From positions 1 through 64,000 of the forward strand of contig NZ_JBOEHB010000002.1 in assembly GCF_050633725.1 (NCBI RefSeq): a stretch of 64,000 nucleotides of DNA, written 5' to 3'. The position numbers were made by a program, and so were the translations under genes. Shown in pieces: positions 6,443 to 37,576 of this stretch (the stretch's first letter is position 1; every line of letters begins with the position of its first letter). Under the pieces are notes generated by a model, which saw nothing but the letters and a program-made list of their open reading frames with translations, was not told the origin of the DNA and ran no database searches. The DNA is from Planktotalea sp. (GTDB lineage: Bacteria > Pseudomonadota > Alphaproteobacteria > Rhodobacterales > Rhodobacteraceae).

Positions 6443-6593
6443 GAATGCTCCTGTTAGCGTGCTTGACTATAGCCATAACAAAGCAATTACCAAAAGCCCT
6501 TGATCCCGCGAACGACTCCTTTTATAGCCCCCGTACTGACGCGGGATTCTGCGCCCCATTTTGTATAGGGCAAGCGTTTCGTAACGGTTTCAT

Positions 6594-6668: not shown

Positions 6669-6735
6669 TGAATTTTTGCCCATTTTGGGCGCTAACCCCG
6701 AGGCGCACGCAGCGCCGCGTATGAGGAGATAACCG

Positions 6736-6861
6736 ATGAAGGTTAAAAACTCGCTCCGCTCGCTGAAGCAGCGTCACCGCGATTGCCGCGTTGTGCGTCG
6801 TAAAGGCCGTGTTTATGTGATCAACAAGACACAGCCTCGCTTCAAGGCCCGTCAGGGTTAA
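6736..6861 (+). CDS. rpmJ: 50S ribosomal protein L36 (41 aa).
   Basis: [41 protein letters not shown] matches L36 essentially end to end. GAGGAG lies upstream. It is missing from the ORF track because it is shorter than 60 aa. Confidence 0.85.
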
Positions 6862-6886
6862 GAGCAAGTAGCTTTTGAATTGATTG

Positions 6887-6917
6887 GGCCGTCTCTTTTG
6901 AGGCGGCCTTTTCTTTT
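6887..6917 (+). terminator. Rho-independent terminator after rpmJ.
   Basis: A 9-bp stem GGCCGTCTC-tttt-GAGGCGGCC (one G-U pair) is followed by TTTTCTTTT. Confidence 0.6.
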
Positions 6918-6927
6918 GCACCTATCT

Positions 6928-11194: not shown

Positions 11195-11254
11195 CCTCCC
11201 ATGGTTATTCCGATGTGGCGGGCTTTCACCCGATATTGAACTCTGGCCCAACGC

Positions 11255-13563: not shown

Positions 13564-13599
13564 TAGAAGGTCTCCAGAGTTTTAGTGTTGAGGATGAAA

Positions 13600-14442
13600 T
13601 TAGTCATGTGCCACCCCCAAATACGCGTCGATAACAGCTTGGTTGTTGCGGATGTCGTTTGGCGTGCCGTCGCCGATCTTCTTGCCGTAATCCATCACAA
13701 CAACGCGGTCGGATAGGTCCATAACAACGCCCATGTCGTGCTCGATCAGGGCGATTGTCGTGCCGAATTCGTCGTTCACATCAAGGATAAAGCGGGACAT
13801 GTCCTCTTTTTCCTCAACGTTCATACCTGCCATCGGCTCATCGAGCAGCAGGATGGACGGCTCTGACACAAGTGCGCGCGCAAGTTCGACGCGTTTCTTC
13901 AAACCGTAAGGCAAACGCGCAACTGGCGTTTTGCGAATCGCTTGGATTTCGAGGAAGTCGATGATTTGCTCCGCCTTCTCGCGGTTCTCAACTTCTTCGC
14001 GCTCTGCTTTGCCCTTCCAAATGGACTGCGCCAGCAAACCTGAACTCATATTGTTCAAACGGCCCGTCATAACGTTGTCCAAAACGGTCATACCTTCAAA
14101 CAAAGCAATGTTCTGGAATGTCCGTGCGATGCCCTGTTGAGCAACCTCGTAAGGCTTCATCTGCGGGCGCGGCTTGCCTTGGAACATCACCTGACCTTCT
14201 TGGGGCACATAAAAGCCCGAGATCACGTTCAGCATCGAGGATTTACCAGCACCGTTCGGGCCAATAATGGCACGAATTTCGCCCTGACGGATGTCAAAGC
14301 TGATGTCCTTGATCGCAACCACACCGCCAAAGCGCAGTGTGATGTTTTTCATTTCCATCACCACGCCGCCAATCGTGCGGCCATCCTCGGTGACGTATCC
14401 TTCTGCGTTATCCAGCATCATACGTTCCTTATTCAGCAGCAA
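13600..14442 (-). CDS. ABC transporter ATP-binding protein, HAAT family (LivG-like).
   Basis: Walker A GPNGAGKSS, the signature and Walker B LLLLDEP are present. The start is uncertain: the internal MEMKNITLRF ATG at about 14358 is plausible. Confidence 0.85.
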   Translation of the reverse strand: MLLNKERMMLDNAEGYVTEDGRTIGGVVMEMKNITLRFGGVVAIKDISFDIRQGEIRAIIGPNGAGKSSMLNVISGFYVPQEGQVMFQGKPRPQMKPYEVAQQGIARTFQNIALFEGMTVLDNVMTGRLNNMSSGLLAQSIWKGKAEREEVENREKAEQIIDFLEIQAIRKTPVARLPYGLKKRVELARALVSEPSILLLDEPMAGMNVEEKEDMSRFILDVNDEFGTTIALIEHDMGVVMDLSDRVVVMDYGKKIGDGTPNDIRNNQAVIDAYLGVAHD

Positions 14443-16402: not shown

Positions 16403-16538
16403 TGATTTCTCCTCCCAATGCACGCTAGTAGACGCGCCAAGTCGCCTGTCGCGACTCGTTTGCCATACCGTGCCAGCAAATTCTTGAACGTCAACTTTTT
16501 CTGCAAGTTTTCTGAATCCTAACGAATTGTAACAATGC

Positions 16539-19240: not shown

Positions 19241-20215
19241 ATGGGACTAAATGACGGCGCATGTTGCCCAAAAGGAAGCGCTGAAACTGGTCAGGCACCG
19301 CATCACATTTATCGCAACGCTGCCTTGGCAGTTCCTAAGGCATCTCCTGAGGTTCGCGATAAATTGCGTGAATCGCTCGTAGAAATCCGCGGCGGAATCT
19401 TTGAGATGGGTGCCCGAAAATCAACGTTTCCTGCGGATCTCGACAGCCCACGCGCTAAAGTTAAAGTATCGTCCTTTCTGATATCCCCGTACTCGGTCAC
19501 GAACGCGCAATTCGCAGCATTTGTGTCCGACACAGGCTATGTGTCCGTCGCTGAGCGCGAAGGTTGGAGCTTTGTGTTTCACCTATTCCTCGATCAACCT
19601 AATAAATGGCAAATTTCGCCCCCCGGCCTGCCCTGGTGGCGCAAAGTAGATGGCGCTTATTGGGCGGCGCCACGTGGGCCAGAAAGTAGCTGGCATGACA
19701 TTCCCGACCATCCTGCCGTCCATATCACTTGGTCAGACGCTTTGGCCTATTGCACATGGGCAGGGCTAAGATTACCGCGAGAAGCCGAATGGGAACGTGC
19801 CGCACGTGGGAAACTGGCAAAGGCTAAATTCCCTTGGGGGAACGCGTTTAGACCGAATGGCGAAACTCAGATGAATACGTGGCAAGGCGATTTCCCGAAG
19901 ACTAACACAGGTGCCTTCTCTCGAACGGGAACTGCGCCTGTTACGGCGTATGAACCAAATACCTTTGGCCTATACAACATGACGGGAAATGTTTGGGAAT
20001 GGGTTCAAGATTACTTTGGCCCGATCCCCAGCAGCGCAAAACGCCCTGTGTTTGATCCAACTGGCCCGAAAAATGGAGATTGGCGGGTCCAACGTGGCGG
20101 GTCTCATCTATGCCATGTCAGTTATTGTGATCGTTATCACGTCCACTCGCGTAGCTCCAATGATCCAGATAGCTCTACCGGAAATTGCGGCTTTCGTGTT
20201 GCTGCTGATATCTAA
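19241..20215 (+). CDS. Formylglycine-generating enzyme (FGE / SUMF1) family protein.
   Basis: The FGE-sulfatase fold is readable (VEIRGGIFEMG...GNVWEWV...RGGSHLCHVSYCDRY, with the C-x4-C catalytic Cys pair). No signal peptide is evident. Confidence 0.8.
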   Translation: MGLNDGACCPKGSAETGQAPHHIYRNAALAVPKASPEVRDKLRESLVEIRGGIFEMGARKSTFPADLDSPRAKVKVSSFLISPYSVTNAQFAAFVSDTGYVSVAEREGWSFVFHLFLDQPNKWQISPPGLPWWRKVDGAYWAAPRGPESSWHDIPDHPAVHITWSDALAYCTWAGLRLPREAEWERAARGKLAKAKFPWGNAFRPNGETQMNTWQGDFPKTNTGAFSRTGTAPVTAYEPNTFGLYNMTGNVWEWVQDYFGPIPSSAKRPVFDPTGPKNGDWRVQRGGSHLCHVSYCDRYHVHSRSSNDPDSSTGNCGFRVAADI

Positions 20216-23965: not shown

Positions 23966-24871
23966 GTGTCCATGACAATCAGGCTATTGCGAACTCTTGT
24001 TGCGATTGCAGATACGCGCACGTTCAGTGCTGCCGCAGATGTCGTGCATGTGACCCATGCCGCGGTGAGTCAGCAAATGCAGACCCTAGAGGCAAACTTG
24101 GGCATTGCCCTATTCAATCGCGAGACACGCACGCCCGAACTAACGCCAATTGCCCATGAAATCGTCCGAAATGCACGCAAACTCATCGCGGACTACGACA
24201 ATCTGGTACCCTCGGTACTCGCAGATGATGGGCTGAGCGGAACTCTTACCTTGGGCGCGCTGCGCACAACGTTGACGGGACTTACCCCGCAAGCAATGGC
24301 GCGGTTGACGAAGCACTACCCCGATCTCACCCTTCATATCAGACCGGGGTTAACCGAAGCGCTTTTGACAGATATCGAAAGAGGAACTCTCGACGCGGCG
24401 ATCATCACCAAACCACACTTGCTGCCGGTCGATATTCAATTTCGAGAATTATGCCACGAGCCAATGGAGCTAATCGCAGCCACCGAGGAAACCGAGACCG
24501 ATCCGATCGTCCTTTTGACCTCGCGTCCCTTTATTCGTTTCAATCGAAATGCGGTTCTCGGCGCATTGATCGACAACTGGCTGCGAACCAATCAAATCCG
24601 CGTCTCTGAAACGATGGAGCTTGATAGCCCAGAGGCGATTGCCAGCATGGTCCACTCTAATCTTGGCGTGTCGATTGTACCCAATCTCGCGGTGAAGCCG
24701 CTCAATCGTATGCCTGTAAAAAGAATTTCCCTCGGTGCCGAAGCGCCTGTTCGCTCTTTGGGTCTGGCCTATCATAAGAACCAGTTGAAAATGCGAGTCA
24801 TTGACGAGGTTTTTGCCGCTCTCTCAAACGTCGTTCAGGCGCAGCACCCTGTGAATGGAAGCGATTCCTAA
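23966..24871 (+). CDS. LysR-family transcriptional regulator.
   Basis: An N-terminal HTH (LLRTLVAIADTRTFSAAADVVHVTHAAVSQQMQTLE) is followed by a LysR substrate-binding domain. The gene is divergent from the ADH, and its stop overlaps the TauE start. Confidence 0.85.
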   Translation: MSMTIRLLRTLVAIADTRTFSAAADVVHVTHAAVSQQMQTLEANLGIALFNRETRTPELTPIAHEIVRNARKLIADYDNLVPSVLADDGLSGTLTLGALRTTLTGLTPQAMARLTKHYPDLTLHIRPGLTEALLTDIERGTLDAAIITKPHLLPVDIQFRELCHEPMELIAATEETETDPIVLLTSRPFIRFNRNAVLGALIDNWLRTNQIRVSETMELDSPEAIASMVHSNLGVSIVPNLAVKPLNRMPVKRISLGAEAPVRSLGLAYHKNQLKMRVIDEVFAALSNVVQAQHPVNGSDS

Positions 24872-25614
24872 TGAGCTTTGAGGTCGCGCTTTTTCTCACA
24901 TTAGGCGCTGCTGCGGGTGGTTTCATAAACGGCCTCGCAGGCACAGGCACCGCGCTGTTTGCGCTGGGCTTTTACTTGCTCGTTTTGCCCCCGATCAGCG
25001 CCGTGGCAATCGTCGCTTTGATGTCCGTTCTGGCTGGGCTTCAAGGATTATGGGTCGTGCGCCGTGAAATTCGCGCCAACCCGATCCGATTGCTCAGGTT
25101 CCTCATACCCGGCCTCGCGGGTGTTCCGATAGGACTTGCCTTGCTTTCGGCAATCGACGCAGGCGCATTGCGTATCGCGATAGCTGCGCTGCTTATCATA
25201 TACGGTGGCTATTTCAGTTTACGCAAATCACTACCGGCATTTTCACGGCGAACGCCTATCATCGACAGCTGCGTTGGCTTCATCGGTGGCGTGTTAGGCG
25301 GCGCTGCGTCTGTATCTGGCGCACTTCCCGTCATTTGGCTGTCGCTGCGCCCATGGCCAAAGGCAGAAACGCGTGCGGTGCTACAGCCCTTCAACGTTGT
25401 CATTCTTAGCACGACAATCGTTCTGCTGTTTTTTAAGGGTGCCTATGATGACACATCCGTCAAAGCCTTGTTCATCACCATCCCCATCGGGATGATCGCC
25501 GCACAAATTGGGATTTTTGTCTTTAATCGGTTGAATGATGACATGTTCCGTAGATTGCTGATTGGCCTCACTCTCTTGATTGGTGCAGGAATTTTCGTAA
25601 GCGAAGCCTTTTGA
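24871..25614 (+). CDS. TauE/SafE (DUF81) family membrane permease, putatively a sulfite / organosulfonate exporter.
   Basis: The 247-aa product has 7-8 TM helices and the duplicated GxGGG motif (GAAAGGFINGLAGTG, GFIGGVLGGAAS). Confidence 0.8.
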   Translation: MSFEVALFLTLGAAAGGFINGLAGTGTALFALGFYLLVLPPISAVAIVALMSVLAGLQGLWVVRREIRANPIRLLRFLIPGLAGVPIGLALLSAIDAGALRIAIAALLIIYGGYFSLRKSLPAFSRRTPIIDSCVGFIGGVLGGAASVSGALPVIWLSLRPWPKAETRAVLQPFNVVILSTTIVLLFFKGAYDDTSVKALFITIPIGMIAAQIGIFVFNRLNDDMFRRLLIGLTLLIGAGIFVSEAF

Positions 25615-25658: not shown

Positions 25659-26084
25659 ATGTTTAAAGGGCGCGTTTCAATGATCTATGAATTTCCGCAA
25701 AAAATTCTGTTCAAACACTGTGATCCCGCCGGCATCGTGTTTTATCCCCGCTATTTTGAAATGCTTAATGATTGTGTCGAAGCCTTCTTTGCCGACATTG
25801 GCTTTGCTTTCGAAGAAATCCACGAGATCGGGCGTGTCCCAACGGTTCAGATCGAAGCGCACTTTGCCAGCCCCAGCAAACACGGCGATGCAATGGTGAT
25901 CGACTTGCAGCTTACCAAGATCGGAAGCAGCAGTATTGGTTTGGAGTTTCATGCGCATTGTGGCGGCGTTACACGCCTAACTGCGAAATCGACGCTGGTT
26001 TACATTAGCCCAAACAATCAATCACAGCCAATCTCAGATGAGCTACGCGCTGCGCTGATGCCTTATCTTCGCTCAGATCAATAG
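25659..26084 (+). CDS. Hotdog-fold acyl-CoA thioesterase (4HBT/YbgC-like).
   Basis: The N-terminal motif reads FKHCDPAGIVFYPRYFEMLNDCVEAFF. The probable start is the internal MIYEF ATG at about 25680. Confidence 0.7.
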   Translation: MFKGRVSMIYEFPQKILFKHCDPAGIVFYPRYFEMLNDCVEAFFADIGFAFEEIHEIGRVPTVQIEAHFASPSKHGDAMVIDLQLTKIGSSSIGLEFHAHCGGVTRLTAKSTLVYISPNNQSQPISDELRAALMPYLRSDQ

Positions 26085-26101: not shown

Positions 26102-27532
26102 TCAGGCCCAGCGCGAGAAACCGAACATGAGATAATCGCGCTGATAAGCATCATGAACCGCTTTTTCGATGTCGTCATTATAGACATCCGCCAGATCAAA
26201 GAAGAGCGGCTGGTCTTCGACCAAATCAAGATCACTCTCTTGCTCGCATCCCGCTGATTTTGCGAGCATCGGGAGCATCTCAGGCAATTGATCTTCGCGC
26301 AGCACCATATCCGGAAGGGCAAACTCACCCATATTAGAAATCGCCTGCGATTGGCTGCACCAATGCGCGTCAACGCGGATAGATGTTTGGCCTGATAGGT
26401 TCATCTTCACAAACTGTGCAAACGCTATGAAAGCCTCTTGATGAGCTGCAATATGCCAATTGCCACCTGGCTCTTGGCCCGGGATTGGCAACTTGTGAAA
26501 GCGGCGCAAGGTATTGCGGATTTTGCTAAAACTTCCTGCGCCAGTTGTCAGAATTTTAGTGCAGAACGCGTCATGCAATCGCGCAACTGGATGGCGTAGC
26601 ACCGTAAACGTGCGGTGCCCAAGATGGTCGCGCTTCCATTGCCGCAAGGTCTTTTGATTGAAACCTGTTTGAAGCCCATCGACCGTTGTTCCATCCAAGG
26701 ATGCGAGCCAGCTTTGCACCAGCGCCTCAGGTCCAGACCTTATCGGTAAATACAAAAGAGGGGATTTCGCGGCTGCGATATAACTTGGAACAACGGGCCC
26801 TCGACGTGGTTCGAAATTTGGAGTGCGCGAAAGATTGAAGCGATCAAGTCGCGCCAGACCACGTTCTAAATCACCGCGGTTTTCTACCTTTTCCTCCAAA
26901 GCAACAGGGTTCTGAGGCTTGAGTGAATCATCTAGACTGTCAAGGCGCGCTTCGATGTCTAGATAAGTCGCCAATCCGTTCATGACCTCAACACTTTGAA
27001 GGTCTTCATATGCAACATAGAAGGCCGTTTGGCCCGTTGCTTGAAGGCGATTGAGCAGAGTGACCTGAAACTCTTGCAACTCTTCTACATGCGTCTCGAA
27101 TTCAGCAGCACTAAACGTCGCTTTCGCTTCGCGCCGGCGTTTGACGTTCGTCAGTTTCCACTGACCTGTTTCCTGCGCGATTTTCCAAGACACATAGCTT
27201 TCAAGCGGATTGCGCGTCAGAATAATCTTCGCGCAACGCGGATCGTCCAGGGCAATATCCATGACGCGAGGATCATGATCGTGAAAATAGCGAAACCCAC
27301 CTAAACCATCTGAAAACTTCTTAATCGTTTCGATCAACTGGACCGGGCTGCTTTCACGCATCTCCCGCGTTACGCCCAAAATCTCGGTTTTATTCGGAAA
27401 GCCGATAAAATGCGGATTGAACGCTTCACCATGACACGTGACTCCATCCATTGCGTTCAAATTCGCTTCAAGGAAGTTCGAGCCCGTCCGCATTTCTGCA
27501 AAGACGATGAAGTAGTCGAAGTGTTCACTCAT
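26102..27532 (-). CDS. Tandem-domain sulfotransferase (NodH/Stf-like N-half plus a second sulfotransferase-like C-half).
   Basis: The N-half has a 5'-PSB-like EMRTGSNFLE and a 3'-PB-like LTRNPLESYVSW. The C-half repeats the pattern (PIRSGPEAL; TVLRHPVARLHDAF). Confidence 0.65.
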   Translation of the reverse strand: MSEHFDYFIVFAEMRTGSNFLEANLNAMDGVTCHGEAFNPHFIGFPNKTEILGVTREMRESSPVQLIETIKKFSDGLGGFRYFHDHDPRVMDIALDDPRCAKIILTRNPLESYVSWKIAQETGQWKLTNVKRRREAKATFSAAEFETHVEELQEFQVTLLNRLQATGQTAFYVAYEDLQSVEVMNGLATYLDIEARLDSLDDSLKPQNPVALEEKVENRGDLERGLARLDRFNLSRTPNFEPRRGPVVPSYIAAAKSPLLYLPIRSGPEALVQSWLASLDGTTVDGLQTGFNQKTLRQWKRDHLGHRTFTVLRHPVARLHDAFCTKILTTGAGSFSKIRNTLRRFHKLPIPGQEPGGNWHIAAHQEAFIAFAQFVKMNLSGQTSIRVDAHWCSQSQAISNMGEFALPDMVLREDQLPEMLPMLAKSAGCEQESDLDLVEDQPLFFDLADVYNDDIEKAVHDAYQRDYLMFGFSRWA

Positions 27533-27535
27533 GAT

Positions 27536-29233
27536 TTACTTTACCAAATATGGCTTGCGCGGTTTCTGAATGGACACAGCAGGACCATCATTGATTGGGA
27601 AATCACCCATAAGATGCGGATGCATCCCTTGGTTCTTAAGGTTTTGCAAAAACTGCCCAAAGCCTTTTAAGTCGGCCATTTTCGGAACCTCTGATAAACG
27701 ACGTTGCGGGGCGTTGCCGATCTCGTCGATGATCGTTTGAAGCGGCTCCATAGGGCTTTCGATAAACTCTGCCATTGTCCAAATCCGAATGCGCGCTTTC
27801 GCATTTGGACTACGCAGTTTGTAAAGAAACTTGTTTTCGATCTTTTGCAGACGCGCAGCTTCGCGGCGCAGGTCAGAAAAATTGTGATTGGCACGAAACA
27901 AAGGTACGGCCCAAGCACCACTTATAACAGACACCTGCGCATTCGGATCTTTGCTGATCTTTGTGCTAATCTTCTGACTATCCATCGGCCCATACTGAAA
28001 GCACTGTCTTTCGCCGCGCGTATTCCAAATCAGGTTCGTAAGGAACGCCGCGCCATTGTAGTCACGCAGGTTAGGATCATCACTTAAGCCGCCGTTGATC
28101 ACCTTTTGATTTCCTGAAAACTCAGCGCGTTCTGGCGAAAAAAGATGGCCGTGAACCTGCGTTCCCGTAGCCTTGGACAACCAAGGTTCAAAATCTTCAA
28201 ACAGCTCTGTGAAGCCTTGAAACACAGAATAATTGGAGCAAGTCAGACCGTTTTCCCAGCCTTCGTTCGGGAAACGGCTGTGCATCACCAAACCCGCACG
28301 ACCGCGCGTACGGCGCTCGACCGCTTTGGCGAAAATGCGGTCTATCTTCCCAGGATTAGGCTCGGCGCGCTTCATTGCACCGTCTTCGTCAGTCAAGAAC
28401 GCGTTATAGACCCGATTGGCATGCGGCCAAATTTTGCGTGCTACAAAACAATCTGAACGGCGCAATAGCTGCAAGTGATCGTCATAGAAAATATGCGGCT
28501 TGCCTTGGAAATCAAACTTGGACAAGGTCAAAGAGCGGCTCTCGATGTTTGAAGAATACTGTCGAGATAACGTTTGAAAATAGCTCTCGTCAGGGATCCA
28601 TACTTTTCGAAAATACCGATCATAAGTTGCGCGCTCTGGGTCTTCCAAGATCGCAGACAACGTTTGACGGGTCAGGCACCACCACTGCGATCCCATATGA
28701 GGCACGATACCTTTGGGAATGCGCCGCTTTAGCCCAATACGGCGCTGCAATGCGGTATATTTATCGAACAGGCGGCGTTGCGTTTTCCAAGAGAACGGGA
28801 ACCGCATGGTAAAGCGTTCAATATCAAGACCGCCAACTGTCCACGGAACATCAGACGTCGTTGCGGATTCGATAAAATCAGTGCGCGGACGTGCGTCGAG
28901 ATATTCAATTAGCTCACGCACGGGACGCAAAGGCAGACACGATCCCGAAGCCAGAAAAACATGGCGCACATCTGTAAATTGCGCGAGCATTTTTTCAGAA
29001 GCAACCTGCGTTGCCGCCGTTATGCCCCAACCGCCCCATTCGCAATAATGTCGCTTGCAAAAATCAATCTCTGGTACGTCTTGCATGGACGCTTGAAACT
29101 CTTGGTAAGTCTTGCGGTCCACCTTCTTGTCGACATGAATAACGACAGGGCACCCCGCCGTTGCCCAATGACGAGCAACTTGTTCAGCGCGGCCAAGGGC
29201 CGTGTGAACCAGCATGACGATACCAACACTCAT
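27536..29233 (-). CDS. Two-domain protein: N-terminal GT14 / core-2 I-branching-type glycosyltransferase-like domain plus a C-terminal domain of unknown function.
   Basis: The N-terminus IVMLVHTALGRAEQVARHWATAGCPVVIHVDKK matches the Branch-family start. The remaining roughly 300 aa have no motif I can name. Confidence 0.6.
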   Translation of the reverse strand: MSVGIVMLVHTALGRAEQVARHWATAGCPVVIHVDKKVDRKTYQEFQASMQDVPEIDFCKRHYCEWGGWGITAATQVASEKMLAQFTDVRHVFLASGSCLPLRPVRELIEYLDARPRTDFIESATTSDVPWTVGGLDIERFTMRFPFSWKTQRRLFDKYTALQRRIGLKRRIPKGIVPHMGSQWWCLTRQTLSAILEDPERATYDRYFRKVWIPDESYFQTLSRQYSSNIESRSLTLSKFDFQGKPHIFYDDHLQLLRRSDCFVARKIWPHANRVYNAFLTDEDGAMKRAEPNPGKIDRIFAKAVERRTRGRAGLVMHSRFPNEGWENGLTCSNYSVFQGFTELFEDFEPWLSKATGTQVHGHLFSPERAEFSGNQKVINGGLSDDPNLRDYNGAAFLTNLIWNTRGERQCFQYGPMDSQKISTKISKDPNAQVSVISGAWAVPLFRANHNFSDLRREAARLQKIENKFLYKLRSPNAKARIRIWTMAEFIESPMEPLQTIIDEIGNAPQRRLSEVPKMADLKGFGQFLQNLKNQGMHPHLMGDFPINDGPAVSIQKPRKPYLVK

Positions 29234-30240
29234 GCCCAGTTCCCTTTGGACATAAGACCCAGAATTTCAAGTTGGCGCCAGTTGATGTATTTTTCTGACC
29301 ACTTGCACCAGAGTTCAGGGTTCTCCGCCAAACGCTCCGCATAGGCTTGGTATTCAACGCTGGCTGAATAATGCTGCTTACGCTCTAGCTCTTCCTGCGC
29401 CTTTTCGGTGAACGTGTTCAGGAACTTCGTGTGAAGCAACACACCTGACGCTTTCTCACCACCCCATTCATCGTAAACGAGGTTTAAGCCACGTGGCAAA
29501 AGGTTATGGGTAGAGCTGACGTAAGTGTACTTGCGATCCCATTTCACCAGCGGAATTTTGTTAAGCGCAGGCGCTTTCTCTGGCTCATCACTAAAGAACA
29601 CACGCGCGCGCGGTCCCCCTTGAATCCAAAGGTTTCCGAGTTTTTTGTTCTTTTCAATCGTGTAGTTGCCTGCATCAAACCAGCACGCCGTATCAATCGG
29701 GTTTTGCCCGGGCATGTATGGCTCGGCGTCAATGCGGCCCTTCGGGTACATATCCAAAAGCATTGCACTAAAGGATTTGATCGAGGATGCATCAAGCCAA
29801 TCAGTCAAAGCGCGGATCGGACGCGTATCGCAGAACGGGAACAAGAAAAACTCGTCCGGATCAACGGTCAAGCACCAGTGCCCATGCGCATAACGCAACT
29901 GCAACCAGTTCAGCCAATCCACACCATAACGCGATTTCTTATAGCTGCTTCGACTGTGCCAAACAGAAACATCAGGCTGATCCGCGAGATACTCAAGCCC
30001 GCCATCATTGCTATCATTGTCCACAATGAAAAAGTGGTTCACGCCCATGTCGCGGTAATACTTGAGGAAGTATGGCAAACGCACATGTTCGTTGCGCATC
30101 GTGGAAAACAGGAAAATGTCACCTGGTTTGATCTGGCTGGTACGATTGCGGATTGGTTGCAACTCGCGACGCTTGCGGAACGCACGAATGCGCCAACGCT
30201 TGCGTTGCAGCCGAAGCCTATATGACCTGACGATGCCCAC
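29230..30240 (-). CDS. Glycosyltransferase (GT2-like / Glyco_tranf_2_4-type).
   Basis: Translation reads FLFSTMRNEHVRLPYFLKYYRDMGVNHFFIVDNDSNDG (nucleotide-sugar-binding start with a DxD-like DND). The ORF overlaps both neighbours by 4 nt. Confidence 0.6.
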   Translation of the reverse strand: MGIVRSYRLRLQRKRWRIRAFRKRRELQPIRNRTSQIKPGDIFLFSTMRNEHVRLPYFLKYYRDMGVNHFFIVDNDSNDGGLEYLADQPDVSVWHSRSSYKKSRYGVDWLNWLQLRYAHGHWCLTVDPDEFFLFPFCDTRPIRALTDWLDASSIKSFSAMLLDMYPKGRIDAEPYMPGQNPIDTACWFDAGNYTIEKNKKLGNLWIQGGPRARVFFSDEPEKAPALNKIPLVKWDRKYTYVSSTHNLLPRGLNLVYDEWGGEKASGVLLHTKFLNTFTEKAQEELERKQHYSASVEYQAYAERLAENPELWCKWSEKYINWRQLEILGLMSKGNWA

Positions 30241-30284
30241 GTGTGCTCTGCCTCCTCATAACCCTATCAACCGCGCTGTTCCGC

Positions 30285-31532
30285 TTAACCAAAGTGTTTC
30301 AACACGAGGTTAAAATGTGCAGCCCACTGCGGCGGTGTAAATCGGGCCTGATCATTACCTACTCTACCTCGATCATCGCTATCTTTTTGCAGCAGTTTTT
30401 CAATCTCGGTGCGCCAAACATAGGCATTCGAGGTCTCTGCGTAAACGGGGAATTCTCCTAGAACTTCGCGATATATGTCCAGATCGCCACAAATGACGGG
30501 AACGCCCAAAGCAAAGGCTTCGACTTGGGGCAAACCATAGCCTTCAGCCAAGCTTGGGAACAGCGCGGCTTCCGCGCCTTTCATCAGCCCCATCATCTGC
30601 GCATCATCAAGGCCGTTGAACTCTAAAATGGGTAAACCGCTCGCTTTGACACCGTCCAGACGCGCGAACACATCTTCATTCTTCCAGCCACGATTGCCAC
30701 AAATCACCAAATACGGCGGAGAGCTTTCGCTAGAGCCGCTCCAATCCTCCCAGAGATCCAGCAAGAACGCGTGGTTCTTGCGTGGCTCAATCGTACCAAT
30801 CGAAATGACATAAGGCGCGGGAACATCGGGCAAGCGAACATCAGGAGTGTTCGGAATATCAACACCAAGATGCGCGACAATCGCATCGGGCACGCGCCCA
30901 AAGCGGGTCATATGTCGCTCTGCGTCAGCGCGGGTTTGTTGTGAATTACAGATCAAAGCGTCGGCATATTGCGACACGATACGCATACGCTTTTCAAAGG
31001 CTTCAACCGTGCCATCACGTTGATGATCTGGCCAATCCAGCGGGATCATATCGTGAATAAGAACAACGCATTGCGCCGTCTTCAACGATTTGAACGCACC
31101 AAAGACACGGCGCGTTAGATTGCTATGCCCTGTGTTGAGGTAAAGAACATCGTCAGGAAAAGCACGCCGCAGCATCCGCGCGAGACGCGCCGGTGTGGAA
31201 CGAGCAATGGCTCGTTTGCGCAGCGCCGTTTCTGCCGCGCGCCGTTGGGGACTAAGCTTTAGAGCAAATCGGGACAGCAAATCAGGATCACCCCAATCCG
31301 CTGCTCTTAGGTGCTGATGCGCGAACGCAAGGCCTGAGCGATCCAAAAGCACATAGCCAAATGCGCTGCGGAACAGACCGTAGATCGCCCGATCTAAACT
31401 TAGGCACCATTCAAGATAGGCCCATTCCACCCGATCCACCCCAGTGTGAACCAAACCCGTTCGACTGAGCAAACGGGTTAGGTCAAGGCAGATAGGCCGT
31501 TCATTTTCAGAAATGCTGTGCGCGCGTGTCAC
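30285..31532 (-). CDS. Glycosyltransferase family 4 (GT-B, retaining).
   Basis: The C-terminal motif reads PSLAEGYGLPQVEAFALGVPVICGD (E-x7-E). Confidence 0.8.
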   Translation of the reverse strand: MTRAHSISENERPICLDLTRLLSRTGLVHTGVDRVEWAYLEWCLSLDRAIYGLFRSAFGYVLLDRSGLAFAHQHLRAADWGDPDLLSRFALKLSPQRRAAETALRKRAIARSTPARLARMLRRAFPDDVLYLNTGHSNLTRRVFGAFKSLKTAQCVVLIHDMIPLDWPDHQRDGTVEAFEKRMRIVSQYADALICNSQQTRADAERHMTRFGRVPDAIVAHLGVDIPNTPDVRLPDVPAPYVISIGTIEPRKNHAFLLDLWEDWSGSSESSPPYLVICGNRGWKNEDVFARLDGVKASGLPILEFNGLDDAQMMGLMKGAEAALFPSLAEGYGLPQVEAFALGVPVICGDLDIYREVLGEFPVYAETSNAYVWRTEIEKLLQKDSDDRGRVGNDQARFTPPQWAAHFNLVLKHFG

Positions 31533-31557
31533 TTGAGACCCTCGCTCACTGCCGCTC

Positions 31558-32451
31558 CTACTGGGCTGCTTTGTCAGTTGCCATCACATCAGTGAGATAG
31601 GAATGCAAATCATCGCGCAGATCATCGCGAGACAAGCCGAAGGCCACAGTCGCTTGCAAGAAGCCCGACTTAGATCCGCAATCGAAGCGCTGGCCGCGGA
31701 AGCGATAACCGTACACTTCCCGCTCTGTTCCGATTTCCTGCGCGATCGCGTCTGTTAACTGGATTTCACCACCTGCGCCGGATTTGATTTTGTTCAAATT
31801 CTTCAAAACATTTGGCGACAGGATATAGCGGCCGATTACAGCAAGATTAGAGGGCTCTGTGCCAGGTGCTGGCTTTTCAACCATGCCATTGACCGAAACC
31901 ATTGATCCCATGTCTTCCTTAATGTCCAACACACCATAGGAAGAGGCTTTTGCAGCGGGGACTTCCATTGCGGCAACCATGTTACCGCCTGTTTCTTCGT
32001 ATGCTTCTACCATTTGCTGCAAGCATGGCTTTTCAGCTGCAATCACATCGTCCGGCAGGATTACAGCAAACGGTTCATTGCCGATCAACCGACGCGCACA
32101 CCAAACCGCATGGCCAAGGCCAAGCGCCTTGTGCTGGCGCATGTAGGCGATCGCGCCGCTATCCATATTGGTGGTTTTTAGAATATCAAGCAGCTCTTGC
32201 TTGCCCTTTTTGCGAAGCTCGTTCTCAAGCTGAGGCGAATGGTCAAAATAGTCTTCAAGCGCACCTTTGCCGCGCGAAGTAACAAAGATAAATTCCTTGA
32301 TGCCAGCCGCACGCGCCTCATCAATGGCATATTGAATGAGCGGTCGGTCCACCAACGTCATGATCTCTTTAGGTACAGATTTCGTTGCCGGAAGAAACCG
32401 TGTGCCTAGACCTGCTACTGGAAAAATCGCCTTCGTTACTTTGTTACGCAT
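31558..32451 (-). CDS. galU: UTP-glucose-1-phosphate uridylyltransferase.
   Basis: Translation reads MRNKVTKAIFPVAGLGTRFLPATKSVPKEIM...VEKP. The track start 21 nt upstream is probably an over-extension. Confidence 0.85.
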   Translation of the reverse strand: MRNKVTKAIFPVAGLGTRFLPATKSVPKEIMTLVDRPLIQYAIDEARAAGIKEFIFVTSRGKGALEDYFDHSPQLENELRKKGKQELLDILKTTNMDSGAIAYMRQHKALGLGHAVWCARRLIGNEPFAVILPDDVIAAEKPCLQQMVEAYEETGGNMVAAMEVPAAKASSYGVLDIKEDMGSMVSVNGMVEKPAPGTEPSNLAVIGRYILSPNVLKNLNKIKSGAGGEIQLTDAIAQEIGTEREVYGYRFRGQRFDCGSKSGFLQATVAFGLSRDDLRDDLHSYLTDVMATDKAAQ

Positions 32452-32584
32452 CGCTCTCGTCCTCGAGTTCAAACATTATTATCTACTTGCCATGCTCCTA
32501 ATATGGAATTGGGCCTAAATCATGTCCATTCGACGGTTTTTAAAGTTTTTGTTTCCAAAATTTAGCATATTGAGCAAGCTATAG

Positions 32585-33814
32585 TCAAAAATCACGAAGT
32601 TTGGCAAGTCTACTCAACTCTAGGGAGAGCCTTCGCGCGCGCGACACAATAGAAATTCTGCGCCCGCTCCGCACGCTTCGGCCAAAAAGACCGCCCGATT
32701 GAACCCAAACGCCTTGGCGCGTGAATCGCACGGAATGTGCACGTGCTCCGCTTGAAAATATGAAAAGTGAGGCACGTCTTCCCGATTTAACGGCGCTCGC
32801 CGCTTCTGCTAACAACGACTCGCGTGCGGAAGGCCGCCCAGACGCAACAAAATGAGTGCCGGAAAACACACTTCGCCAAGACTTCAGCCCTTTTTGCGCC
32901 TCAAAAATTTCAGGCAGCGGCTGAATACTACGTATCGCCCCTTCCTTAGCACCTTCATCAAATGATCTTAGTAGGCGCTTAACTTCGCTCGGCTCAATCG
33001 CACCACGCACCATATGGCCAAGCACTCTGCGCCGTTGCTCTTCGCGAAAAGAGGCCATCGCACTTGCATGCCTATCGACTGGTGCGTGTTTGCGTAGAAA
33101 GATTACCGAACTCGCCGCAATTTCAAACAGATCAGTAGGAGCGCGATCACGACGGCGTGTCGCGCTCGCTTTGTATCCGTGATGAACAATCGCCAACGGA
33201 GAAATTGCCGTTCGGAATCCTTGCCCCATAAGGCGATAGTTCACATCAGTTTCATCAAGAAAAAACTTAAAGGCCGGATCAAACCCACCCATCTTCGCAA
33301 TCACATCACGCCGCAGCGCCATGTTCGTTCCTTCAGTCTTTATCGCCTGGCCGTTTTGAGGCGACAAAAGGTTCGTATTGCTCTCATCAACACCCAATGC
33401 ACTTGCAACGCCAAGGCAATTTACGGTGCGCGCCTTCCACTGAAAGCTTATCCCGTTGCGACCAATGACAAACCCGCCCGAGGCCGCGACATCTGCTTCG
33501 CTAAAACCTTCGACAAGATAAGTTAACCAACTCGGCTCCGGGACAGCATCATCGTCGATAAAGGCTATGATTTCACCAGCCGCGATTTCTATCCCGAGAT
33601 TGCGAGCCTTCGAAATATTAGCTTCATCGAACTGAACGACTTTAAGATCGTCATAAAAAGACAATGAGCGCGCAGCTTCGAGCCCGTCCTTGTCCGCAAC
33701 AAGAACCACTTCAAACGTTGGATAATCAAGTTGCGTGATGCCAATCAGACAGAGTGGGAGATCAGCAGCGCGGCCTCGGCTGACAACAATGACAGAGACC
33801 GAAGGGGCGTTCAT
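32585..33814 (-). CDS. Glycosyltransferase family 2 with a C-terminal extension.
   Basis: Translation reads VSVIVVSRGRAADLPLCL...FIDDDAVPEP (DxD / ED motifs). An AT-rich 110-nt gap separates it from galU. Confidence 0.8.
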   Translation of the reverse strand: MNAPSVSVIVVSRGRAADLPLCLIGITQLDYPTFEVVLVADKDGLEAARSLSFYDDLKVVQFDEANISKARNLGIEIAAGEIIAFIDDDAVPEPSWLTYLVEGFSEADVAASGGFVIGRNGISFQWKARTVNCLGVASALGVDESNTNLLSPQNGQAIKTEGTNMALRRDVIAKMGGFDPAFKFFLDETDVNYRLMGQGFRTAISPLAIVHHGYKASATRRRDRAPTDLFEIAASSVIFLRKHAPVDRHASAMASFREEQRRRVLGHMVRGAIEPSEVKRLLRSFDEGAKEGAIRSIQPLPEIFEAQKGLKSWRSVFSGTHFVASGRPSARESLLAEAASAVKSGRRASLFIFSSGARAHSVRFTRQGVWVQSGGLFGRSVRSGRRISIVSRARRLSLELSRLAKLRDF

Positions 33815-34611
33815 TCAATCCCCATCTCCAGCATCATGCGCTCGATCACAGGGACATCTTCGGGATTGTTCAACTCCCAAAATTGCTTTCCACGAGCGTC
33901 TACTTCAACGCATCGAACTGTTCCGCCTTGCTCCATAAAGCGGAGCTGCTCAAGACCTTCGAGCTGTTCGAGCGGACCGATGGGCCAGCTGGGATAGGCC
34001 GCCAATGCGCTCGGCCGGTAAGCATAAACACCAACATGATGGAAAACTGGGGTTTCAGTGGCATCGTCGTAGGTTTCAGATGTGAATGGCACGACTTCTT
34101 TCGAGAAATACATCGCGCGCATATTGGCATCGAAAACAGCGGTGGTGCCACCAACGCGCCCCGCTTTGCGATCAGCGAGAAACCCGTTCAAAGCGCGCCC
34201 ATCACAGCGCAAAACTGGGGTCGCAATATCCGCCTCTGGCGCAGCTTTCATAGCGCTCACCAGATCTTCAACAAACCAATGTGGTGTTAGCGGCGCATCA
34301 CCTTGCAAATTCACCACAATTTCCGCATCGCTGCCCAGCGCCTCATAGGCCGCTGCGCAACGCTCTGTTCCGTTAAAACAAGTATCAGGTGTCATAACGA
34401 CCTCAGCGCCGAACGCCTCGCTTGCCGCTTTGATCCGATCATCATCCGTGGCAACGACAACGCGATCCACCCCGCTTACAGCACTTGCCGCTTCCCAAGC
34501 GCGCTGGATAAGCGAGCGGGATTGACCGCTCGCACCTTTCAGCGCTGCTAGAGGCTTTGCAGGATAGCGCGTTGATGCATAGCGTGCGGGAATGACAATC
34601 AGAACAGACAC
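33811..34611 (-). CDS. kdsB: 3-deoxy-manno-octulosonate cytidylyltransferase (CMP-Kdo synthetase).
   Basis: Translation reads VLIVIPARYASTRYPAKPLA...VVVATDD...NLQGDAP. Confidence 0.85.
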   Translation of the reverse strand: MSVLIVIPARYASTRYPAKPLAALKGASGQSRSLIQRAWEAASAVSGVDRVVVATDDDRIKAASEAFGAEVVMTPDTCFNGTERCAAAYEALGSDAEIVVNLQGDAPLTPHWFVEDLVSAMKAAPEADIATPVLRCDGRALNGFLADRKAGRVGGTTAVFDANMRAMYFSKEVVPFTSETYDDATETPVFHHVGVYAYRPSALAAYPSWPIGPLEQLEGLEQLRFMEQGGTVRCVEVDARGKQFWELNNPEDVPVIERMMLEMGIE

Positions 34612-35409
34612 TTACGCTTCTTTCAGCTCAACATCAGGAGAATAGGCGATAAAGAACGGGTTCGCGTAATCGTCTTTGCCATACCGCAGGTCTTCATGGT
34701 TATCGAAACGCACCACACGCCCACCAGCGCCGGTTAGAACAGCATGGCCCGCGGCGGTGTCCCACTCCATCGTGCGGCCAACACGCGGGTAGATGTCCGC
34801 TTCGCCCGTCGCAATCAGGCAAAACTTAAGAGAAGAACCCGCACTCTTCATGTCGCGCACTTGGTACTTGTTGATGTAATCGTCCGTCGCTTGATCGCGA
34901 TGGGATTTCGAGGCCACAACAAATAGCGCTTTGTTGTCTGGTTTGCTCACGCCAATGACATTTTGCTGACCGACAACATCCGGGTGCAAAGGACCAGTCT
35001 CTTCGATCGACTGTCCATCCGCTCGGGTGTAGAACATACGCTTTTTCGCAGGCGCATAAACAACACCGCGCGTTGGTACACCGTTCTCAACAAAAGCGAT
35101 GTTCACAGTGAAATCACCGCGGCGGTGAATGAATTCTTTCGTACCATCCAAAGGATCCACAATCAGGAACGTCTCGCCTGATGTTTTATGGGAATCCGAC
35201 TGCTCTTCGGTAACAAGCATGACGTCCGGGAACGTTTCGCGAAGACCTGCCGAGATCAGTTTGTCTGCTGCTTCATCCGCAGCCGTTACAGGGCTGTCGT
35301 CCGACTTGGATTTTACATCGAAATCGTCCTGACCATAGATGTCCATAATGACATCGCCCGCCGCGAGCGCCAATCGACGCATCGTTTCTTCTAGCTGTTT
35401 GTAGTCCAT
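34612..35409 (-). CDS. cysQ: 3'(2'),5'-bisphosphate nucleotidase (PAP phosphatase, inositol-monophosphatase fold).
   Basis: The metal-binding motifs VDPLDGT, TEEQ and WDTAAG are present. It is the first gene of the leftward operon and abuts kdsB. Confidence 0.8.
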   Translation of the reverse strand: MDYKQLEETMRRLALAAGDVIMDIYGQDDFDVKSKSDDSPVTAADEAADKLISAGLRETFPDVMLVTEEQSDSHKTSGETFLIVDPLDGTKEFIHRRGDFTVNIAFVENGVPTRGVVYAPAKKRMFYTRADGQSIEETGPLHPDVVGQQNVIGVSKPDNKALFVVASKSHRDQATDDYINKYQVRDMKSAGSSLKFCLIATGEADIYPRVGRTMEWDTAAGHAVLTGAGGRVVRFDNHEDLRYGKDDYANPFFIAYSPDVELKEA

Positions 35410-35532
35410 TTGCCCGATCCTTGCCTAATATCGTTCGATAATGTTGATAAAATATCTACGCCTCTTATGATATGTAGCTGCGAGAACGGCAATAATCTTC
35501 AAACAATTCGTTCGGCATCAGGCAGAGTAAAC

Positions 35533-36354
35533 ATGTTTCAAGTACGAAAACGCGAGACCACGTTCAGGAAAATCCTGACCTTCAATGAGCTCGTTTACCA
35601 TAATATCGTGCGAACGATCCGCAAAACGCATGGCAATGCGTTGATGAGTATCGTGATGAATTTAATGCAAATGATCATCTTTGTTCTCGCGTTCTATTTC
35701 ATGTTCTCGATTCTTGGCCTGCGCGGCGCGGTTCTGCGTGGTGACTTCATGGTTTACATTATGACAGGCATTTTCCTGTTCATGACCCATATCAAAACGG
35801 TCGCGGCTGTATCCGGTTCTGAGGGACCAGCATCTCCGATGATGAAGCATGCCCCAATGAACACCTCGATTTCGATTGCCGCTGCCGCGCTCAGCCAGCT
35901 CTATATTCAAATGCTGTCGCTTGTTGTGATCATGTTCGCCTACCACGTTCTTGTCACACCGTTCGAAATTCAAAGCGTCACGGGCGTGATGTTCATGATC
36001 ATCTTGGCGTGGTTTACCGCAGTAGCCGTCGGCATGGTGTTTCTCGCGATCAAGCCATGGTCACCGGGCCTGTCATCGCTACTCTCTACGATTTACCAAC
36101 GCGCGAACATGATTGCTTCGGGCAAAATGTTTGTGGCCAATACCCTGACACCGCAGTTGTTGACGATGTTTGACTGGAACCCACTGTTTCATTGCATCGA
36201 CCAATCGCGTGGATATGCCTTTGTGAATTACGCACCGCGCAATTCTTCGTGGGAATATGCGTTCTACGTCGGAGTTATTCTGTTGGTCATTGGCATGATG
36301 GGCGAATTCTACACACGCAAACACGCATCTGCCAGCTGGAGCGCGCGCCAGTAG
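35533..36354 (+). CDS. ABC-2 type polysaccharide-export permease (KpsM-like), with no adjacent ATPase.
   Basis: Translation starts MFQVRKRETTFRKILTFNELVYHNIVRTIRK, followed by 6 TM helices, which is the KpsM/Wzm architecture. The in-frame ATG is at 35533, and the track start at 35410 lies in the divergent promoter region. Confidence 0.75.
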   Translation: MFQVRKRETTFRKILTFNELVYHNIVRTIRKTHGNALMSIVMNLMQMIIFVLAFYFMFSILGLRGAVLRGDFMVYIMTGIFLFMTHIKTVAAVSGSEGPASPMMKHAPMNTSISIAAAALSQLYIQMLSLVVIMFAYHVLVTPFEIQSVTGVMFMIILAWFTAVAVGMVFLAIKPWSPGLSSLLSTIYQRANMIASGKMFVANTLTPQLLTMFDWNPLFHCIDQSRGYAFVNYAPRNSSWEYAFYVGVILLVIGMMGEFYTRKHASASWSARQ

Positions 36355-36652: not shown

Positions 36653-37576
36653 ATGGATCGCATCGCCCCCTTTACCGCCCTCAGAGCCTTCGAAGCTGCC
36701 GCACGGCATTTGTCTTTTGCCGCAGCTGCGGAAGAGTTGAACGTCACGCCCGCTGCGCTTTCTTTTCAAATCCGCTCCTTGGAAGAACATCTTGGTGCAC
36801 CTGTCTTTCACAGGCGCAATCGGGCAGTTGATCTAACAGAAATCGGTGCAACTCTTTATCCAGAAGTTGCAGAAGGACTTGGCACTCTGTCGCGCGCTTG
36901 GAGCGCTGTTCGGCGGCGCATCACGGCATCCAGCCTAACGATCACCGCTGGCCCCGCTTTCACTGCAAAATGGCTCGCGCCGCGCCTTTTCACATTTGCC
37001 CAAGCCAATCCAGATCTAGAGCTTCGCTTTGCGGCAACTCTGCGGCTGCTTGATTTCACGCGCGATGAAATTGATGTCGCGATCCGCTTTGGCACTGATG
37101 ACACAGCCGGTCAGTTTAACGAGGTTATTGTGCGCGAATGGGTAACGCCAATGATGCACCCTAATCTTGCCCACGCGATCGAAACGCCAGAGGATTTGCT
37201 GACGCTTCCTTTTATTCATGACAGCAGTCTTGATTTTCTCCCAAACTGGGACGGATGGGCCACATGGTTCGATGCAATGGATATGAAATTCGCGATTAAA
37301 CAAGGCCCTCGCTTTTCCCAAGCGGACCATGCCACGGACCTCGCCTTATCTGGCGGCGGTGTATTGCTTGGGCGTGCCTCGATCACAGAGCGTTCATTGA
37401 AGGAGGGATTGTTGGTAGCCCCCTTTGCCCAGAGCCTTCGTGTTCCGGCGAGCTATCGTTTGGCTTGCCCGCTCGGGCTAGAAACGACCTCCGCAGTAAA
37501 ATGCTTGCGCGATTGGATTTCTGATGAGCTCGAAAGTTTTGATCAGCTTTCGGCGACGCGTGATTTTCTAAACTAG
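36653..37576 (+). CDS. LysR-family transcriptional regulator (GcvA-like).
   Basis: The HTH reads FTALRAFEAAARHLSFAAAAEELNVTPAALSFQIRSLE. Confidence 0.85.
   Translation: MDRIAPFTALRAFEAAARHLSFAAAAEELNVTPAALSFQIRSLEEHLGAPVFHRRNRAVDLTEIGATLYPEVAEGLGTLSRAWSAVRRRITASSLTITAGPAFTAKWLAPRLFTFAQANPDLELRFAATLRLLDFTRDEIDVAIRFGTDDTAGQFNEVIVREWVTPMMHPNLAHAIETPEDLLTLPFIHDSSLDFLPNWDGWATWFDAMDMKFAIKQGPRFSQADHATDLALSGGGVLLGRASITERSLKEGLLVAPFAQSLRVPASYRLACPLGLETTSAVKCLRDWISDELESFDQLSATRDFLN

Follow-up and report, generated by a model that had tools for sequence, protein, structure and literature searches.

A conserved operon of the Roseobacter group predicted to assemble and sulfate an envelope glycan, analysed in a Planktotalea metagenome-assembled genome

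In a window of 64,000 nucleotides (nt) of Planktotalea sp. (contig NZ_JBOEHB010000002.1, positions 1 to 64,000), which stems from a metagenome-assembled genome of the Roseobacter group, eight tightly packed co-directional open reading frames (ORFs) occupy the minus strand from 26102 to 35409 and form what, judged by comparison with related genomes, is an old, vertically inherited operon of the core chromosome of the Roseobacter group and not a recent capsule island. Counted from the last gene to the first, they encode a two-domain sulfotransferase, a glycosyltransferase (GT) of family 14 fused to the domain DUF5927, a Glyco_tranf_2_4 glycosyltransferase, a GT4, GalU, a GT2, KdsB and CysQ, and a permease of the ABC-2 type (ABC, ATP-binding cassette) is transcribed divergently from them. 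With chances that we consider about even, the operon represents a conserved, dispensable pathway for the cytoplasmic assembly of a hexose-containing envelope glycan, probably associated with lipopolysaccharide (LPS), and for its sulfation from 3'-phosphoadenosine-5'-phosphosulfate (PAPS); sulfation, acceptor and export route are what we infer from gene families and gene neighbourhood.

Among bacteria sulfated glycans are a rarity, with rhizobia and cyanobacteria as the best-known sources, and roseobacters are among the most abundant marine heterotrophs. A sulfotransferase operon that is fixed across an ecologically dominant marine group and has no assigned product is hence of interest, where the names given in current annotation, 'NodH' and 'beta-1,6-N-acetylglucosaminyltransferase', are regarded as placeholders.

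Conservation and layout of the operon

Counterparts were sought with the GT14/DUF5927 protein as query, each species being represented by one genome, and at least 599 species were matched; of the matches listed, the closest 80 loci, all from Rhodobacterales, were analysed, with gene counts based on 82 loci, those of lptB and galE on 85 and the spacer alignment on 70. The common order reads dnaK, alkB, the divergent permease gene, cysQ, (kdsB), (GT2), galU, (galE), (GT4 or a second Glyco_tranf_2_4), Glyco_tranf_2_4, GT14/DUF5927 and sulfotransferase. More than 80 loci from many genera of Rhodobacterales have it next to alkB-dnaK, and it is also kept in two lineages in which sulfotransferase identity to the window is down to 33-35%. 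The Glyco_tranf_2_4, GT14/DUF5927 and sulfotransferase genes co-occur in fixed order in 79-80 of the 82 loci (the sulfotransferase gene in 79), and the two glycosyltransferases among them show 69-94% identity across the 80 closest loci and 37% in the distant lineage L084; for GT14/DUF5927 alone, identity across roseobacter genera amounts to 73-89%. Capsule and O-antigen loci are usually hypervariable, and the high conservation of these two proteins therefore points to a conserved structure rather than to a variable capsule.

The sequence-only reading of this DNA had described the block as clearly more AT-rich than its flanks and had suggested horizontal acquisition, and neither statement was borne out. 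The block is the lowest 9-kb stretch of the window in GC content, with 51.5% against 53.4% in the rest of the window, which is a difference of only 1.9 points, and GC at third codon positions (GC3) is equal (0.544 in genes of the block, 0.556 in other genes; Mann-Whitney p=0.45). No transfer RNA (tRNA) gene or bounding repeats were found to flank the block, and no integrase or transposase was present among the annotated neighbours. Horizontal transfer was rejected on the grounds of GC3, of the missing tRNA gene and repeats at the flanks and of synteny, the site being the same in the more than 80 loci even at sulfotransferase identities of 33-35%; the modest dip in GC is no evidence for it.

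That eight co-directional minus-strand genes of the proposed families lie at the proposed coordinates was confirmed by ORF listing and family scans. According to the coordinates, a 3-nt gap separates sulfotransferase and GT14, GT14 and Glyco_tranf_2_4 overlap by 4 nt, gaps of 44 nt and 25 nt follow between Glyco_tranf_2_4 and GT4 and between GT4 and galU, GT2 and kdsB overlap by 4 nt, and kdsB and cysQ adjoin at 0 nt. The sole larger internal gap, between galU and GT2 (32452-32584), is AT-rich as had been claimed (37.6% GC), but its length is 133 nt when counted from the annotated ATG at 32451, or 112 nt if a TTG start of galU is used instead, and not 110 nt; in the relatives L004 and L013, the two checked, this gap is of similar size. 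Two weak sigma-70-like matches on its minus strand (32588-32559 and 32528-32500) make it a possible internal promoter, in a scan which, as was true of the general promoter and terminator scans overall, did not rise above chance.

The divergent spacer between cysQ and the permease gene (35410-35532; 123 bp; 40.7% GC), for which an AT-rich promoter region had been predicted, has a median length of 120 bp in related loci and carries, directed into cysQ, the promoter-like element TTGCCG-17 nt-CATAAG (35464-35492, minus strand). Its -35-like hexamer, TTGCCG or TTGCTG, recurs in 64 of the 70 aligned spacers, taken from many genera, and its -10-like hexamer CATAAG in 60, which upholds the prediction and fits one promoter driving the whole leftward operon. 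Overlapping or abutting junctions together with a single conserved promoter-like element indicate co-expression, and we infer that the genes are co-transcribed.

The sulfotransferase and the other enzymes of the operon

The sulfotransferase (476 aa; 26102-27532; like all eight genes on the minus strand) is composed of a NodH-like N-terminal half (residues ~1-235) and a Sulfotransfer_2-like C-terminal half (~245-476). The C-terminal half passes the Pfam model Sulfotransfer_2 (PF03567) with 25.6 bits against a cut-off of 22 (residues 301-473), the match taking in model positions 76-252 only, and the N-terminal half matches Pfam Sulfotransfer_1 and Sulfotransfer_3 at sub-threshold level only. A profile built from 51 homologues matches PDB entry 9vki, named 'LPS sulfotransferase NodH' (E=1.4e-14, residues 7-155), from which the protein of the window differs in that 9vki is single-domain with 264 aa and the 476-aa protein twice that length. 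An AlphaFold2 model, with a mean predicted local distance difference test (pLDDT) of 92, had exclusively sulfotransferases as its top Foldseek matches in the PDB, tyrosylprotein sulfotransferases and Stf0 (trehalose sulfotransferase) being among them.

In the N-terminal domain the 5'-phosphosulfate loop M14-R15-T16-G17-S18-N19 is placed after strand 7-12 and before helix 15-27, and R15, G17, S18 and N19 (M14-R15-x-G17-S18-N19) are invariant in the 51 sequences down to 31% identity; in the 3'-phosphate motif R107 and S115 are likewise invariant, N108 and P109 nearly so. Such invariance of the catalytic motifs down to ~31% identity argues for purifying selection on activity, and the domain is probably an active PAPS-dependent sulfotransferase. 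In the C-terminal half, loop position 265 is occupied by P in 12, R in 11, K in 6, A in 5 and G in 4 of the 51 sequences, R313 is found in 30, the serine position 321 holds D, R, A, H or E, and conservation is limited to H314, P315 and R318; this domain is degenerate, having lost the PAPS-binding residues, and probably has a role in binding or as a scaffold. The assignment as a sulfotransferase, made originally from the letters alone, is thus supported in agreement by the Sulfotransfer_2 score, the 9vki match, the invariant PAPS motifs and the fold, and of the label 'tandem sulfotransferase' the second domain of the same fold family stands, but its PAPS-binding residues are gone. An internal duplication was considered and rejected, as hhalign of the two halves gave a probability of 24%, and the halves are assigned to two different sulfotransferase-fold families. 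The 476-aa protein has more than 5300 homologues, its two-domain length of ~475 aa is kept down to ~31-34% identity, and the named distant homologues still belong to Rhodobacterales. In Paracoccus (P0219) an 826-aa protein consists of the two-domain sulfotransferase and ~350 extra residues.

CysQ, a 3'(2'),5'-bisphosphate nucleotidase that acts as phosphatase on 3'-phosphoadenosine-5'-phosphate (PAP), is encoded by the first gene of the operon (34612-35409; TIGR01331 263 bits against 228.8) and is present at the site in 67 of 82 loci. The link between CysQ and the sulfotransferase, from which a sulfated product had been deduced, is plausible in the light of this frequency but not exclusive, since in two loci of Roseobacter sp. 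(L050 and L052, ~10001-12300) cysQ, kdsB, galU, two Glyco_tranf_2_4 genes and GT14/DUF5927 are kept and the sulfotransferase is missing; ptsN there follows directly after GT14/DUF5927.

The GT14 protein (565 aa; 27536-29233) joins a Branch domain (PF02485; 64.4 bits against a gathering score of 23.4) to DUF5927 (535 bits). In its structure model the N-terminal half, with a GT-A fold, matches structures of C2GnT-L and xylosyltransferase 1 (3otk, 2gam, 6eje; E ~1e-10 to 1e-9), which confirms how the Branch domain folds; the model as a whole is of moderate to poor quality (pLDDT 66.5), much of residues 124-329, which comprise the linker and the start of DUF5927, lying below 50; in the structure search with this low-confidence model, PDB matches were obtained for the GT14 half only and none for the DUF5927 part. 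Eukaryotic GT14 enzymes (core 2 beta-1,6-GlcNAc transferase, xylosyltransferase 1) share with it the Branch domain and the structural match at E~1e-10, whereas the protein of the window is bacterial, cytoplasmic, free of a membrane anchor and fused to DUF5927. One lineage (L083, 9110-9961) has a 283-aa Branch-only protein without DUF5927.

The Glyco_tranf_2_4 glycosyltransferase (336 aa; 29230-30240; PF13704 117.7 bits) occurs in 80 of 82 loci with the 69-94% identity given above. The GT4 (415 aa; 30285-31532; Glycos_transf_1 53.7 bits; 53 of 82 loci, 40-78% identity) and the GT2 (409 aa; 32585-33814; Glyco_tranf_2_3 and Glycos_transf_2; 48 of 82 loci, 42-67% identity) constitute a variable module, which in some relatives is replaced by a second Glyco_tranf_2_4 paralogue. 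GalU, a UTP-glucose-1-phosphate uridylyltransferase (297 aa; 31558-32451; TIGR01099 334.8 bits against 326.8; 69 of 82 loci), starts at ATG 32451, which is also the choice of the public annotation and has GAGGA upstream. Between galU and GT4 a galE-like epimerase gene lies in 56 of 85 loci (for example L004, 6762-7745; Pfam Epimerase 197.6 bits); it is gone from the window, where the galU/GT4 gap extends from 31533 to 31557, and from P. arctica. Hydropathy revealed no hydrophobic segment in any of the eight enzymes, which would place assembly and sulfation in the cytoplasm. GalU and KdsB seem to be suppliers of general use and not to mark the polymer.

In Ruegeria pomeroyi the locus maps to SPO0034-SPO0040, as derived from SPO0042 being alkB and from the gene order in Ruegeria, with SPO0034 as counterpart of the sulfotransferase, SPO0035 as that of GT14/DUF5927 and SPO0040 as that of the permease. 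The counterparts appear in the literature in an sRNA (small RNA) table, a comparative-genomics list and a transposon sequencing (Tn-seq) dataset only. SPO0035 is among 37 orthologous groups which nine roseobacters have and two comparison strains lack (PMC8319176). The relative fitness of mutants was 0.98-1.02 for SPO0034-37 and SPO0040 and 0.98-1.04 for SPO0034-37 and SPO0040-42 together, and SPO0038, SPO0039 and dnaK (SPO0043) are absent from the fitness table (PMC10041152, Dataset S3). R. pomeroyi can thus dispense with SPO0034-37 and SPO0040, the counterparts of the glycosyltransferases, the sulfotransferase and the permease, and the absence of SPO0038 and SPO0039 from the table suggests that these two genes, identified by position, are essential.

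[quoted passage not shown] Among the 67 loci having cysQ there are 16 in which kdsB is absent at the site and cysQ abuts the next gene. Because of this absence, and because its presumed counterpart SPO0038 is absent from the Tn-seq table and the other genes are dispensable, kdsB is probably the ordinary housekeeping copy for LPS, which weakens the former argument that KdsB implies a Kdo-containing glycan like the rhizobial K antigen.

The divergent permease and neighbouring genes

The permease (273 aa; 35533-36354, plus strand), which most likely starts at ATG 35533, matches KpsM of PDB 8tsh over its full length (residues 25-266 against 31-270; E=1.8e-5) and has, by hydropathy, roughly five or six membrane segments (six overlapping stretches listed), so that the divergent KpsM-like ABC-2 permease expected at this place was recovered. 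Its score with the NCBIfam KpsM model is far below the cut-off (32.5 bits against 300), Pfam ABC2_membrane matches at sub-threshold level, and the name it bears in the sources is 'ABC-type polysaccharide/polyol phosphate export permease'; by its similarity it belongs with ABC-2 permeases of the KpsM/Wzm kind and is not a KpsM equivalog. A divergent copy was found in 66 of 82 loci.

The ABC ATPases of the window are those of the liv-like transporter only (9010-9882 and 13600-14442). In relatives the gene adjoining the permease gene encodes a non-ATPase of ~200 aa, with SH3_3 in two of five checked and no Pfam match in the other three; this protein (L013, 1332-1934, minus strand; L045, 4627-5220, minus strand) is probably SPO0041 in R. 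pomeroyi, and in the window a LysR regulator (36653-37576) stands in its place. A 252-aa ATPase of relatives was considered as partner of the permease and discarded, being LptB instead. As had been stated beforehand for wzx/wzy, kpsT/E/D/C/S and an initiating transferase, none of these, nor KpsF, was detected in the scanned window ORFs of at least 130 aa; the scan comprised the six ORFs without a Pfam match and left ORF 63090-63767 aside, and the ORFs with a match are housekeeping genes.

A match to the Rfam family RF02645 (Ruegeria cis2 sRNA) was found at 36097-36236 on the minus strand, where it runs antisense to the permease gene's 3' part; it covers the full model and scores 65.1 bits (gathering score 50; E=1.9e-11), and L013, L029 and L045 show it as well. 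The cis2 of R. pomeroyi DSS-3, confirmed by reverse-transcription quantitative PCR (PMC4809877), lies antisense to SPO0040 ('ABC transporter, permease'). The folding energy of the region is no better than that of shuffled sequences (z=0.29), and for this reason the match may reflect coding conservation only.

In most relatives ptsN, hpf, (rpoN), lptB, lptA, lptC and kdsD are situated just past the sulfotransferase gene on the opposite strand and thus convergent to it. An LptB homologue occurs in 78 of 85 loci; its identity was confirmed for L029 (TIGR04406, 360 bits), where models of LptA, LptC and KdsD/KpsF match as well (13137-17303), and Pfam marks are found in two distant lineages. P. arctica, Ruegeria and the window have the lpt side rearranged, and what lies past the sulfotransferase in the window is a 4HBT thioesterase (25659-26084), a TauE-family (sulfite exporter) protein (24871-25614) and a LysR regulator (23966-24871). 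About 6 kb to the left of the operon, Pfam marks indicate a protein with an FGE-sulfatase domain (19241-20215, plus strand) beside a pair of hybrid histidine kinase and response regulator, a further neighbour related to sulfur. The remaining window is made up of housekeeping genes (pyrF, dinB, the liv-like transporter, dnaKJ, radC, secA, argJ, infB, nusA and others). From dnaJ onwards (40374-62583) these include radC, an OmpA-domain protein, secA, a PPIase, argJ and so on to nusA, pip, a methyltransferase, a regulator, a CN hydrolase and a comF-like gene, in the order of SPO0044-SPO0071 of R. pomeroyi, which amounts to long-range synteny with the start of its locus-tag numbering (SPO0001 onwards). 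The sole tRNA gene of the window, tRNA-Val (GAC) at 6594-6668 on the plus strand, lies inside ORF 6487-6921 on the minus strand, which is probably not a gene.

Nature of the glycan and its significance

In the pathway as we propose it, GalU would provide UDP-glucose and, in most relatives, GalE UDP-galactose; Glyco_tranf_2_4 and GT14/DUF5927, both soluble and highly conserved, would lay down the conserved part of the glycan, and the variable module, which is GT2 plus GT4 here and a second Glyco_tranf_2_4 in other genera, would add a lineage-specific part. Sulfate would be moved from PAPS by the NodH-like N domain, with the degenerate C domain probably holding the acceptor or serving as a scaffold, and the by-product PAP would be hydrolysed by CysQ, whereas kdsB would ride along in the operon as an ordinary CMP-Kdo synthetase for LPS. 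The acceptor would most likely be LPS-associated, either an extension of the outer core or an O-chain-like glycan exported via the Wzm/KpsM-like permease and an ATPase encoded elsewhere. A product of this kind is favoured because kdsB is part of the operon, kdsD-lptCAB are adjacent, the enzymes are soluble and LpsS offers a precedent.

In the account given in PMC12445080 (citing Cronan & Keating, 2004), LPS of Sinorhizobium meliloti is sulfated by LpsS. The likeness comprises an alphaproteobacterial host, a cytoplasmic PAPS-dependent enzyme of the NodH/Stf0 kind that acts, here by prediction, on an envelope glycan, and a non-essential gene; the difference is that LpsS is annotated as a single-domain protein of the Stf0 family, whereas here a fixed two-domain fusion is found, the N half of which matches 9vki and stays below the Pfam sulfotransferase thresholds. 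LpsS is not known to be encoded together with glycosyltransferases, cysQ and kdsB in one operon.

Several points weigh against an LPS-associated, sulfated product. An LPS core needs no ABC-2 permease, and for the permease no ATPase partner was detected in the window or beside it in relatives. Genes of PAPS synthesis are not in the window, to which that observation is confined. The adjacency of lptCAB may be inherited gene order and is lost in the window, P. arctica and Ruegeria, cysQ persists in L050 and L052 without a sulfotransferase, and SPO0038 and SPO0039 were assigned to kdsB and cysQ by gene order in other Ruegeria loci only. The links from locus to glycan and from locus to sulfate come from gene families and genomic context. 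No paper was found on DUF5927 or on the product or function of the locus, and the literature yielded nothing linking roseobacters to a sulfotransferase of the 476-aa type or to cysQ/kdsB. Finally, in a review (PMC3210612) the lipooligosaccharide of the roseobacter Loktanella rosea is described with a very small core made up of two Kdo and neuraminic acid, for which neither hexose nor sulfate is reported.

The last observation would be accommodated if the product were a free sulfated poly- or oligosaccharide independent of LPS (a capsule, an exopolysaccharide or a periplasmic glycan), built in the cytoplasm on a lipid carrier, its export depending on the ABC-2 permease and an ATPase encoded elsewhere. 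We regard this as a serious rival, if in itself rather improbable: the divergent permease is conserved in 66 of 82 loci, every enzyme is soluble, as in pathways that depend on an ABC transporter, R. pomeroyi can do without the genes, the core of L. rosea is devoid of hexoses, and sulfated polysaccharides are described from marine bacteria and cyanobacteria. Yet neither the scanned ORFs of the window nor the 10-kb flanks of relatives yielded an initiating transferase, an ATPase for the permease or a component for export in the periplasm or outer membrane, the conservation of the two core transferases would be unusual for capsule or exopolysaccharide loci, and the locus adjoins kdsD-lptCAB and includes kdsB. 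Going by its description in PMC8205485, the synechan (xss) cluster of Synechocystis similarly pairs glycosyltransferases and sulfotransferases for an extracellular glycan, but here a compact operon with cysQ, kdsB and galU is present and the scanned ORFs yielded neither a polymerase or flippase gene nor one for outer-membrane export. An acceptor that is no envelope polysaccharide at all, be it a small glycolipid, a secreted oligosaccharide resembling a Nod factor, with the permease as NodJ, or a protein, appears improbable to a greater degree. It would suit the tyrosylprotein sulfotransferases and Stf0 among the top Foldseek matches, the similarity of the GT14 half to human xylosyltransferase 1, which is a protein-modifying enzyme, the best sequence match being a protein deposited as NodH, and the fact that NodJ, too, is a permease of the ABC-2 type; on the other hand, acceptors cannot be distinguished by fold matches inside the sulfotransferase superfamily, a set of three to five glycosyltransferases together with GalU and GalE suggests a larger product, and no candidate target protein is conserved at the locus. 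With the Nod system of sulfation (NodH, NodPQ) and export (NodIJ) the operon has in common that the 476-aa protein is publicly annotated as NodH and that a sulfotransferase is paired with an ABC-2 permease, but the window contains no NodA-, NodB- or NodC-like gene set, no NodI ATPase and no NodPQ, and the hosts are marine non-symbionts.

The view from which the analysis departed, a horizontally acquired island for a Kdo-rich, sulfated capsule of the K-antigen type (Escherichia coli group 2, rhizobial rkp) with Kps-type ABC export and kpsM as its visible part, is very unlikely and, as to origin, largely refuted. It draws on the KpsM-like permease, the sulfotransferase, the slightly lower GC and kdsB in the operon, which recalls kpsU of E. 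coli group 2 loci. These are countered by the occupation of one site in more than 80 Rhodobacterales loci, with order kept at 33-35% identity, by GC3 equal to that of the flanks and the lack of a bounding tRNA gene or repeats, by core enzymes 69-94% identical across the 80 closest loci, unlike variable capsule loci, and by kdsB, which is absent at 16 of 67 sites and looks essential in R. pomeroyi. Compared with the E. coli group 2 Kps system (KpsMT-KpsE, 8tsh), an ABC-2 permease, here one similar to KpsM, a gene for CMP-Kdo synthetase at the locus and cytoplasmic assembly, here as predicted, are shared, but KpsT/E/D/C/S/F are missing from the scanned window ORFs, no ABC ATPase stands beside the permease of relatives, the permease falls far short of the KpsM equivalog cut-off (32.5 bits against 300), and the locus is a conserved core and not variable. 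Hardly credible, in our estimation, is that there is no single pathway and that envelope or housekeeping genes and unrelated transferases are held together by inherited order, with a sulfotransferase that is inactive or acts elsewhere. General-purpose enzymes (cysQ, kdsB, galU), the two loci with cysQ and no sulfotransferase (L050, L052), the near-neutral fitness of mutants and the 133-nt gap, which may hold a promoter of its own, could be taken in this sense; the overlapping or abutting junctions with their single conserved promoter-like element, the joint occurrence of Glyco_tranf_2_4, GT14/DUF5927 and sulfotransferase in fixed order in 79-80 of 82 loci and the N-domain catalytic motifs, invariant to ~31% identity, speak against it.

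Returning to the conserved envelope-glycan pathway, its component families are known, and what sets it apart from described sulfated-glycan systems is the fusion of a probably active and a degenerate sulfotransferase domain, the GT14-DUF5927 protein and the lone ABC-2 permease. The presence of kdsB and cysQ in a glycan operon does not alone define the polymer. Tentatively, and in this wide form more doubtful than otherwise, it may be proposed that nearly all roseobacters carry a conserved sulfated envelope glycan, possibly sulfated LPS, for which they have a dedicated pathway; its three uncharacterised components would be GT14-DUF5927, the fusion of an active NodH-like domain with a pseudo-sulfotransferase, and a stand-alone ABC-2 permease with a cis-antisense RNA. 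As insertions in the R. pomeroyi counterparts were recovered in the pooled Tn-seq, mutants are viable, and an arrayed library exists. If a sulfated envelope glycan is indeed made, it would be a lineage-wide surface trait, which could have a bearing on algal-bacterial recognition, on the receptors used by gene transfer agents and phages and on the marine sulfur cycle, where a sulfate ester at the cell surface could be an overlooked sink and source of marine organic sulfate.

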